NCBI GenBank assembly: GCA_964620675.1 | Contig: CAZUJU010000009.1 | Span: forward strand, 13,943 to 77,942 | Direction: 5' to 3' | Origin: an uncultured Thiotrichales bacterium | GTDB taxonomy: Bacteria > Pseudomonadota > Gammaproteobacteria > UWMA-0217 | DNA: 64,000 nt | Shown here: piece by piece, positions 48,124 through 48,795 of the stretch | Layout of the letters: the number at the start of each line of letters is the position of its first letter | Position numbering within the stretch: the first letter of the stretch is position 1 | Translations under genes and position numbers: made by a program | Notes under the pieces: generated by a model | Database searches by the model: none | What the model saw: only the letters and a program-made list of their open reading frames with translations | Told to the model about the DNA's origin: nothing

Positions 48124-48795
48124 ATGAATTGTTCTAGACCTAGCGGTACGCGAACGCTGCGACTGTTGAGCTTCGCATTCGGCGTGTGCGGCCTTTTTTT
48201 AGTCACCCCTGTTCAGGCAGCCGAGATTCCGTGGACGACGAAAACGTACTCGCACTATTCCAACAGCGAGCCGCTGCGCAACATGGTCAACAGCTTTTTC
48301 GGTAGCCACGGCGTTCCCGCTATCGTGAGCAAGAAGATCAAGGACGTCGTCAGCTTGAGTTTCAGCGACATATCGAACGACGAAGTGCTGGAGCGGTTGG
48401 CGAAGACCTATAATCTCACCTGGTACTACGACGGCAATGTCGTCTATGTTTATCACATAGACGAGATTCAAACCGGAACGCTGATGCTCAAGCATATCAG
48501 TGTCAAGGAATTCACCGATGCGATCGAGCGCATGGGAATCTACGATCCGCGCATATCCTGGACCCTTTCGGAGCGCGACGGTTTGCTGCATTTCGCCGGC
48601 CCTGCGCGGTACGTCGAAATGGTCATGGAATCCGCCAAAGTCATTGATCGCGCGCCGGTGGCGCAAGCGCTCGGCGTCGCCTATCGCTGGATTGACGCGC
48701 GCGGGGTCAGAAACTTGAGTTCCGCGCCGCCGTCGAAGGATGTCGTCAACTACGAAGTGGTGGACCTCGGTACGTTTCAGGTACAAGCGCGGTAA
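48124..48795 (+). pseudogene. sctC: Secretin SctC (YscC/InvG family) N-terminal fragment only: 223 aa with signal peptide and N0/N1 region; secretin pore domain absent
   Basis: YNLTWYYDGNVVYVY matches YscC YNLVWYYDGNVLYIF. TAA stop at 48793-48795, then the sctD gene begins within about 100 bp, so no room for the roughly 400-aa C-terminal secretin domain. Confidence 0.6.

Follow-up and report, generated by a model that had tools for sequence, protein, structure and literature searches.

The stretch of DNA analysed here (the window) comprises 64,000 nucleotides (64 kb) of a contig from an uncultured Thiotrichales bacterium and carries an island of genes for a type III secretion system (T3SS). 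Our analysis centres on one gene of this island, sctC', which encodes a short form of the secretin SctC. Its product retains the N-terminal secretin domains, and a DUF4124 mini-domain of approximately 40 residues stands in place of the N3, secretin and S domains. The gene and the part coding for its tail are located as follows:

48124..48795, plus strand: sctC', short SctC of 223 amino acids, with an ATG start and the stop codon TAA at 48793-48795
48661..48792, plus strand: DUF4124-like tail of SctC' (GVAYRWIDARGVRNLSSAPP...), recognised by its motif, by PF13511 matches of the family and by a beta mini-domain in the structural model

An open reading frame (ORF) of this length and with this stop codon had been described in an earlier note on the window and is present exactly as stated there. 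SctC' is built from a signal peptide (residues 1-32), an N0 domain (approximately 37-112), an N1 domain (approximately 115-178) and the DUF4124-like tail (approximately 180-223). Its N-terminus, MNCSRPSGTRTLRLLSFAFGVCGLFLVTPVQA-AE, reads as a Sec signal peptide: basic residues (n-region) are followed by a hydrophobic core and by VQA-AE as cleavage site, all of them predicted from the amino acid sequence. N0 and N1 were both matched by Pfam models above their gathering cut-offs (T3S_SPI-1_N0, PF21304, residues 47-110, E = 1.4e-7; Secretin_N, PF03958, residues 119-178, E = 2.1e-8). The NCBIfam model for SctC (TIGR02516) was matched with an E-value of 1.5e-30, yet over its positions 2-137 of 463 only and with 106 bits compared to a cut-off of 238. 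The best solved relative turned out to be InvG (E = 2.5e-17, residues 6-169 of 562). BLASTP against YscC of Yersinia pestis yielded 32% identity over 145 amino acids (E = 2e-29) and also verified the YscC motif that the earlier note had quoted (YNLVWYYDGNVLYIF). The AlphaFold2 (AF2) model of SctC', computed from the family alignment, reached a mean predicted local distance difference test score (pLDDT) of 89 and a predicted template modelling score (pTM) of 0.70 and contains N0, N1 and a beta mini-domain at residues 185-222. Its N0-N1 part was superimposed by Foldseek on the N0-N1 domains of InvG, MxiD and EscC with a root mean square deviation of 1.7-2.0 Å and template modelling (TM) scores of 0.83-0.91; PDB entry 6rwk ('MxiD N0 N1 and MxiG C-terminal domains') was among the structural matches. 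The similarity to secretin N-domains is thus far beyond chance, and the signal peptide and YscC-like N0/N1 part claimed earlier stand. The product was, however, described as nothing but an N0/N1 segment, and in that respect the description fails, as a conserved DUF4124-like tail is present at the C-terminus instead of a mere stub.

For the missing pore region we constructed a hidden Markov model (HMM) of 430 positions covering N3, secretin and S domains, i.e. the region after N1, from 69 full-length T3SS secretins. This C-terminal HMM was searched against all stop-to-stop ORFs of at least 50 amino acids, with the window and 90 loci each read in six frames. No match at E < 0.1 was obtained in the six frames of the whole window, although the controls were positive in 30 of 30 loci with full-length secretins (1e-56 to 1e-141), each time in the same ORF as the N-domains. 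Neither did the search recover a pore domain in any frame of approximately 50 related short-SctC loci, including 10 kb on either side. SctC' lacks a match to the Pfam Secretin model (PF00263), and a secretin, of whatever class, is likewise absent from the ten ORFs that are the largest in the window apart from it; the other large ORFs have housekeeping functions. That the locus leaves no room for a secretin C-terminal region in any frame, as the earlier note had argued, is hence confirmed, and the check for a frameshifted C-domain immediately downstream, which the note had proposed, found none. A frameshifted or downstream secretin remnant is ruled out, given the null result in the tail-type loci and the consistently positive controls. 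The S domain and a cognate pilotin are missing as well: SctC' stops 24 residues past its DUF4124 motif, and no pilotin-like conserved lipoprotein family was seen in the short-SctC clusters, whereas in the Ysc system of Yersinia the pilotin gene yscW adjoins yscC. One might still suspect an assembly or sequencing artefact, i.e. a frameshift or mis-join that hides the C-terminal domain, since one ENA contig of the same sample terminates within sctD (L004). We give this explanation practically no credence: the identical 223-amino-acid protein is present in three assemblies of the stromatolite metagenome from which the window stems (the NCBI metagenome-assembled genome (MAG) GCA_050330555.1, ENA and Logan), no frame contained a C-domain signal, and genomes of Thiothrix, Thiolinea and Thiofilum isolates encode proteins of this architecture, too.

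The tail that takes the place of the pore region is defined by the motif Y-[RK]-W-x-D-x-x-G-x-x-[HN]-[FY]-S..PP. Taken alone, SctC' of the window scores only 18 bits with the DUF4124 model (PF13511), which is under the cut-off of 22; of 39 family members, however, 33 match this model (E <= 0.01, best E = 2.9e-11). Counted as 50%-identity clusters, at least 38 short representatives carry the motif, compared to 0 of 80 full-length secretins. Its position is constrained, too: in 51 of 52 loci it lies 84-93 residues past WYYD and is followed by the stop codon after 4-63 residues (median 32). The AF2 model places strands at residues 185-190, 196-199, 210-214 and 219-222. We considered the tail as a degenerate N3 remnant and rejected this idea, as hhalign of the tail profile against an N3/secretin/S profile gave a probability of 0.1%; the tail therefore is a different module and not a decayed stump. 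The earlier term 'truncated' accordingly holds in an evolutionary sense, similar to rhizobial RhcC1, but not in the sense of a plain truncation. A solved analogue of the tail was found neither by sequence, where the profile gave only chance matches to designed repeats in the PDB, nor by fold, where Foldseek with a tail-only AF2 model returned nothing below E = 1. One family member (P0018, 476 amino acids) contains two tandem DUF4124 motifs and a C-terminal extension of approximately 250 amino acids.

DUF4124 occurs in many unrelated periplasmic proteins, and its sole studied member is TfpC of Neisseria gonorrhoeae, which stabilises type IV pili, a secretin-based machine (PMC7593972). TfpC resembles SctC' in its PF13511 motif and in being a periplasmic factor of a machine that contains a secretin, but it differs by its N-terminal position of DUF4124, by a proline-rich and coiled-coil C-terminus and by the lack of secretin domains (PMC7593972). 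For the role of DUF4124 in SctC', we regard the analogy to TfpC and type IV pili as a lead, not as evidence.

SctC' is not an oddity of a single genome; throughout a clade of Ysc-like T3SS, SctC regularly has this short form. When 1.84 billion cluster representatives were searched with a profile, 1203 matches were obtained. The best matches, approximately 28, are nearly all 176-281 amino acids long and aligned through profile position 194-214, whereas full-length secretins align to approximately position 175 of the SctC' profile only. When one genome per GTDB species was scanned, 47 loci matched through the tail. Among the hosts are Thiothrix fructosivorans ATCC 49748, T. caldifontis DSM 21228, T. 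eikelboomii ATCC 49788 and T. lacustris DSM 21227, further Thiolinea disciformis DSM 14473 and Thiofilum flexile DSM 14609 as well as members of Leucothrix, Cocleimonas, Candidatus Competibacteraceae and Granulosicoccaceae. Databases label the family as 'secretin N-terminal domain-containing', 'DUF4124 domain-containing' or 'hypothetical'. Of the 52 loci, 51 have sctD next to the short sctC; the majority of the remaining core T3SS genes occur as well, and complete clusters exist in L007, L008, L009 and the Thiothrix type strains. L007 and L008 share the gene order STAS-V-N-O-C'-D-E-G-I beside U-T-S-R-Q-L-K-J, and the Thiothrix-type order is L-O-N-V-NfeD-U-T-S-R-Q-TGL // C'-D-E-F?-G-I-J (TGL: protein-glutamine gamma-glutamyltransferase-like, i.e. 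transglutaminase-like, protein). In one locus (L030, 10651-12027 and 13019-13595), sctD and the sctI-like gene are split into several ORFs, for which either indels introduced by long-read assembly or genuine decay of the system in that lineage is responsible. The earlier suggestion of a standalone periplasmic N-domain protein is supported by these data but incomplete, as the protein has N0 and N1 plus the DUF4124 tail in place of the pore and is the regular SctC throughout the clade.

The earlier note offered a pseudogene remnant as alternative. In this case, a full-length sctC would have decayed together with its T3SS island, and the state of the island could suggest as much: sctJ, K, L, Q, R, S, T and U are missing from it, and it breaks off abruptly at dnaE2. 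The missing genes most probably lie, however, on a second contig of the same sample, as described below, and sctC' itself is under purifying selection. We determined the ratio of nonsynonymous to synonymous substitution rates (dN/dS) with the Nei-Gojobori method for window genes and their orthologues in one sister MAG (GCA_050329935.1, L001/L012), which has the same island with the same flanks and, after correction of the start codon, an SctC' orthologue of 223 amino acids. At 79% amino acid identity and a dS of approximately 2, dN/dS of sctC' is 0.069, close to that of sctN (0.038) and sctV (0.049); the values for sctG, the sctI-like gene and sctD are 0.026, 0.105 and 0.19, and those of all T3SS island genes lie between about 0.03 and 0.41. 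No stop codon interrupts an island gene in this comparison, so that the ORF of sctC' is intact in both MAGs. Length, architecture and tail are kept in 51 of 52 loci, which include the complete clusters, and in dozens of 50%-identity clusters. Decay thus appears extremely improbable as an explanation for the short gene.

The island is organised in two divergent operons, in which STAS, sctX, sctY, sctV, sctN and sctO follow each other on the minus strand and sctC', sctD, sctE, an ORF in the position of sctF, sctG, a sctI-like gene and orf78 on the plus strand:

47406..47804, minus strand: STAS-domain protein, first gene of the divergent operon (PF01740, E = 5.7e-12; also in L007 and L001)
46995..47360, minus strand: sctX (TIGR02502, 43 bits, above the cut-off of 30; PF09474)
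46589..46984, minus strand: sctY-like TPR chaperone (NF052415 SctY, 66.9 bits, slightly below the cut-off of 70)
44487..46589, minus strand: sctV, export gate (FHIPEP, E = 3.5e-227)
43165..44490, minus strand: sctN, ATPase (Pfam match; closest to YscN)
42677..43168, minus strand: sctO, stalk (PF07321, E = 1.6e-12)
48889..50193 (alternative ATG at 48802), plus strand: sctD, inner-membrane ring (TIGR02500, 105 bits, above the cut-off of 86; Pfam match)
50190..50429, plus strand: sctE-like needle co-chaperone (weak PF08988/TIGR02501 match; in 47 loci; dN/dS 0.04)
50618..50848 (start in the MAG annotation at 50648), plus strand: small Q/M/S-rich protein in the sctF position (positional homologues in 43 loci; 95% identical in the sister MAG)
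50935..51303, plus strand: sctG-like TPR chaperone (TPR_19, HrpB1_HrpK, CdsG family; in 45 loci)
51413..52033, plus strand: sctI-like protein of 206 amino acids with the conserved C-terminus ...EFWLTKIKVLTSAVSQAGTAVRTLFTSQ
52249..52485, plus strand: orf78, conserved small protein (MSN..NPNDL.L.QLL...; homologue in L013 at 14136-14375; dN/dS 0.11)

The start of sctD about 94 bp past the stop codon of sctC', as given in the earlier note, agrees with the gene call of the MAG at 48889, which is more likely than the ATG at 48802. The cytoplasmic domain of SctD is FHA-like, its periplasmic domains are BON-like, and Y4YQ_C forms its C-terminus. Co-variation of SctD with the short SctC via Y4YQ_C was considered and dismissed, as this domain is general to SctD, including systems with full-length secretins. 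The sctI-like family was found in 41 loci, always between sctG and sctJ, and its homologue in L015 gave a weak match to T3SS_basalb_I (PF17001). Recurrence of the STAS gene in the sister MAG (L001) and in L007 hints at a possible regulation of this T3SS by partner switching.

A search with an outgroup SctJ led to a sctJ-K-L-Q-R-S-T-U-luxR locus (L092/L093) on another contig of the same stromatolite assembly. Its tetranucleotide composition correlates with that of the window (r = 0.93), and GC content is 56% against 59-62%. Most probably, this second contig of the same metagenome harbours the core genes sctJKLQRSTU of the window organism. A 706-amino-acid lipoprotein with a beta-propeller domain is encoded upstream of sctJ in L092. 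A split into two T3SS loci is also found in the Thiotrichales MAG GCA_024763135.1 (L014 and L095). In the nearest outgroup, L013, sctI, orf79, sctJ and sctK are contiguous, with the homologue of the small ORF between sctI and sctJ; hence, the window lineage broke the operon right after orf78. Beyond the island, a gene pair for a RES-domain toxin and an Xre/MbcA-like antitoxin (window positions approximately 56183-57326, minus strand) sits between dnaE2 (52509-55955) and a PAP2/sulfatase pair and is conserved in the sister MAG.

With respect to its lineage, the T3SS around sctC' is Ysc-like, judged from the presence of sctX and sctY, the gene order and the relationships of SctN. SctN of the window is 66% identical to YscN, 63-64% to AscN, VscN and SctN of Desulfovibrio, 53-61% to rhizobial SctN, 57% to HrcN of Ralstonia and 45% to SpaL, and the order C-D-E-F-G-I-J of the short-SctC clusters is that of the virC operon of Yersinia. 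YscC, AscC and PscC give the best N0-N1 matches (32-34% identity), and their genes, too, lie upstream of sctD in systems with SctX and SctY. They differ in that they possess N3, secretin and S domains and the pilotin YscW, whereas SctC' continues as DUF4124 past residue 178 or so.

A secretin remnant of this kind is already known from rhizobia. RhcC1 (NolW) is likewise an N-terminal secretin remnant of approximately 220 amino acids (223 in NolW) that is exported by Sec and encoded among core T3SS genes. It was proposed to act as linker between SctD and the Tad-derived pore RhcC2 (Abby & Rocha 2012, PMC3459982), the gene of which can be far from the Rhc cluster (PMC3459982); for some Rhc subgroups, such as that of R. 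etli, no pore is known (PMC3459982; Gazi 2015, PMC4500985). SctC' could thus be an orthologue of RhcC1/NolW within an Rhc-family T3SS, with a Tad-type RhcC2 pore encoded elsewhere in the genome. Equal size, an equal set of remaining domains and the potentially remote RhcC2 gene fit to this explanation, which we nevertheless consider very unlikely. SctN, SctX/SctY and the order C-D-E-F-G-I place the system with Ysc and not with Rhc, and N0-N1 of SctC' scores 111 bits with AscC and 105 bits with YscC, compared to 69 bits with NolW. NolW of Bradyrhizobium and RhcC1 of Ensifer lack the DUF4124 motif, and nolW is divergent from nolB-sctJ (L010, nolB-rhcJ-nolU), whereas sctC' is directly upstream of sctD-E-F-G-I. 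An RhcC2-like partner was found neither in the window nor within 10 kb on either side in approximately 50 loci, and a Tad-type pore encoded in trans, if there is any, would be a case of convergence rather than orthology. When a neighbour-joining tree was computed from 141 columns of N0-N1, all 39 sequences with the tail were monophyletic, although with modest bootstrap values: the median replicate united 34 of the 39 in a pure clade, and strict monophyly was obtained in 0% (rogue sequences P0024 and P0025). At the limited resolution of such a tree, none of 200 bootstrap replicates placed RhcC1 within the tail clade, and its mean distance to the tail family is 2.0-2.6 compared to 1.5-1.6 for Ysc-type secretins. 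As RhcC1 lacks the tail and was never found inside the tail clade, the reduction of the secretin occurred independently of the rhizobial one.

Further deviations from known T3SS concern the switch protein and the needle. We sampled SctU from L092 (9334-10380), L095 (9916-10962), L007, L008 and L018-L058, and the NPTH autocleavage motif is absent in 29 of 29 clade proteins, with D-[IMV]-G or DYTN/DYAN in its place; this suggests that SctU of the clade may be a non-cleaving switch protein. At the position of sctF, 43 loci share a conserved ORF for a protein rich in Q, M, S and A, which has no PxxP turn and no match in Pfam or among PDB profiles of solved needle proteins. Since both the NPTH motif and a recognisable needle are missing, the machine may not be a conventional injectisome. 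All ORFs of 53 loci were clustered without finding a conserved candidate for an outer-membrane partner in cis; the conserved clusters comprise only core T3SS families, flanking housekeeping genes, the NfeD-like protein and TGL. The beta-propeller lipoprotein of L092 was considered for this role and discarded, as it is not conserved elsewhere. Translocon or ruler genes were not seen in the Thiothrix clusters. TGL, which is encoded divergently from sctC' in Thiothrix, and a DUF1521 protein in clusters of Competibacteraceae are candidate effectors. In NopE, an effector of rhizobia, DUF1521 is the domain responsible for metal-induced autocleavage. The loci of these candidates (TGL or DUF1521) are:

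8738-9787 of L037, minus strand: candidate effector gene
8514-9773 of L043, minus strand: candidate effector gene
L055: two copies of a candidate effector gene
4144-5421 of L015, plus strand: candidate effector gene

What is then the function of a secretin without its pore? In solved injectisomes, the secretin touches SctD via its N0-N1 ring, which docks on the C-terminus of SctD in the periplasm (e.g. PDB 6rwk). In published structures from Salmonella, the N0-N1 ring is reportedly one subunit larger than the pore, so that a semi-autonomous ring appears possible. Taking these aspects together, we propose that sctC' probably encodes a functional, secretin-derived subunit of a Ysc-related T3SS that is typical of Thiotrichales and some neighbouring Gammaproteobacteria and serves as a tail-linked connector ring in the periplasm. 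SctC' would be exported to the periplasm by Sec, its N0-N1 domains would dock on the C-terminus of SctD and form a connector ring atop the SctD and SctJ rings, and its DUF4124 tail might tie this ring to another partner in the envelope. The partner could be a channel encoded elsewhere, comparable to the Tad-type RhcC2 for RhcC1, or peptidoglycan or an outer-membrane protein. We arrive at the connector ring on SctD from two sides: SctD of the clade has lost none of its periplasmic domains, with Y4YQ_C still present at the C-terminus, and the proposed linker function of RhcC1 provides a precedent (PMC3459982). Several observations weigh against our proposal. No partner channel was found in cis, the clade lacks the NPTH motif of SctU as well as a recognisable needle protein, and the tail has no solved analogue, with DUF4124 studied in TfpC alone (PMC7593972). 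Moreover, the sctJ-U locus is tied to the window organism by shared sample and composition only and was binned in a different NCBI MAG; co-residence with the window is therefore inferred and not shown.

Some of these observations would also be expected under the main competing explanation, in which the system itself does not cross any outer membrane, but ends in the periplasm or co-operates with another machine like the T3SS* of Myxococcus xanthus, with SctC' acting as a periplasmic collar or peptidoglycan anchor and not as adaptor to a pore. No pore, pilotin or conserved outer-membrane candidate was detected in about 50 clusters, and the lack of a recognisable needle protein, of the SctU switch motif (29 of 29) and of translocon or ruler genes in the Thiothrix clusters points in the same direction. 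A precedent exists, as T3SS* is conserved and apparently functional without a needle or outer-membrane parts and without a pore gene in its cluster, and acts with another envelope machine, the Tad-like Kil system (PMC10433427). T3SS* has, however, neither an SctC remnant nor needle chaperones, whereas the Ysc-related clade studied here keeps N0-N1, SctE and SctG. Conservation of these homologues of needle co-chaperones and of the SctI-like protein, the candidate effectors in the clusters, and the retention of N0-N1, which suggests that something is located above the ring, lead us to regard a machine that crosses no outer membrane itself as unlikely, albeit worth considering. Finally, the DUF4124 tails of the oligomer could themselves form a novel structure inserted into the outer membrane, as each ring would contain 12-16 copies of the beta-rich tail. 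A membrane could hardly be spanned by the predicted strands, which comprise a mere 4-6 residues, the residues of the tail are polar and charged, and DUF4124 is found in many unrelated periplasmic proteins (PMC7593972); we deem such a tail-built pore highly improbable.

Reduction of a T3SS secretin to a stand-alone protein of N-terminal domains is, as such, not new in view of the rhizobial case. New is an independent instance in a Ysc-related lineage, with a defined replacement domain, a wide distribution in Thiotrichales and their neighbours and no pore gene in cis. The literature searched yielded neither a link of DUF4124 or Thiothrix to T3SS nor a description of this family. How a T3SS crosses the outer membrane without a secretin of its own is a problem already raised for Rhc-III of Rhizobium etli and for T3SS* of Myxococcus. 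The short-SctC family adds a second, independent and much larger natural experiment to it, with dozens of species, among them strains of Thiothrix, Thiolinea and Thiofilum that can be cultured, and the presence of DUF4124 in place of the pore makes the outer-membrane question directly testable. There is also a practical consequence for annotation, as pipelines demanding a secretin domain will score short-SctC systems as incomplete. As a tentative hypothesis, which we consider possible but less likely than not, the clade comprising Thiothrix, Thiolinea, Thiofilum, Leucothrix, Cocleimonas, Competibacteraceae and relatives may constitute a distinct class of T3SS, characterised by the lack of a dedicated pore, an SctC composed of N0-N1 and DUF4124, a non-cleaving SctU and a non-canonical filament subunit. 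If this is true, DUF4124 would connect the machine to a heterologous channel in the outer membrane, or else substrates would be delivered by a route that has not been described so far, and a first molecular function could be assigned to DUF4124.

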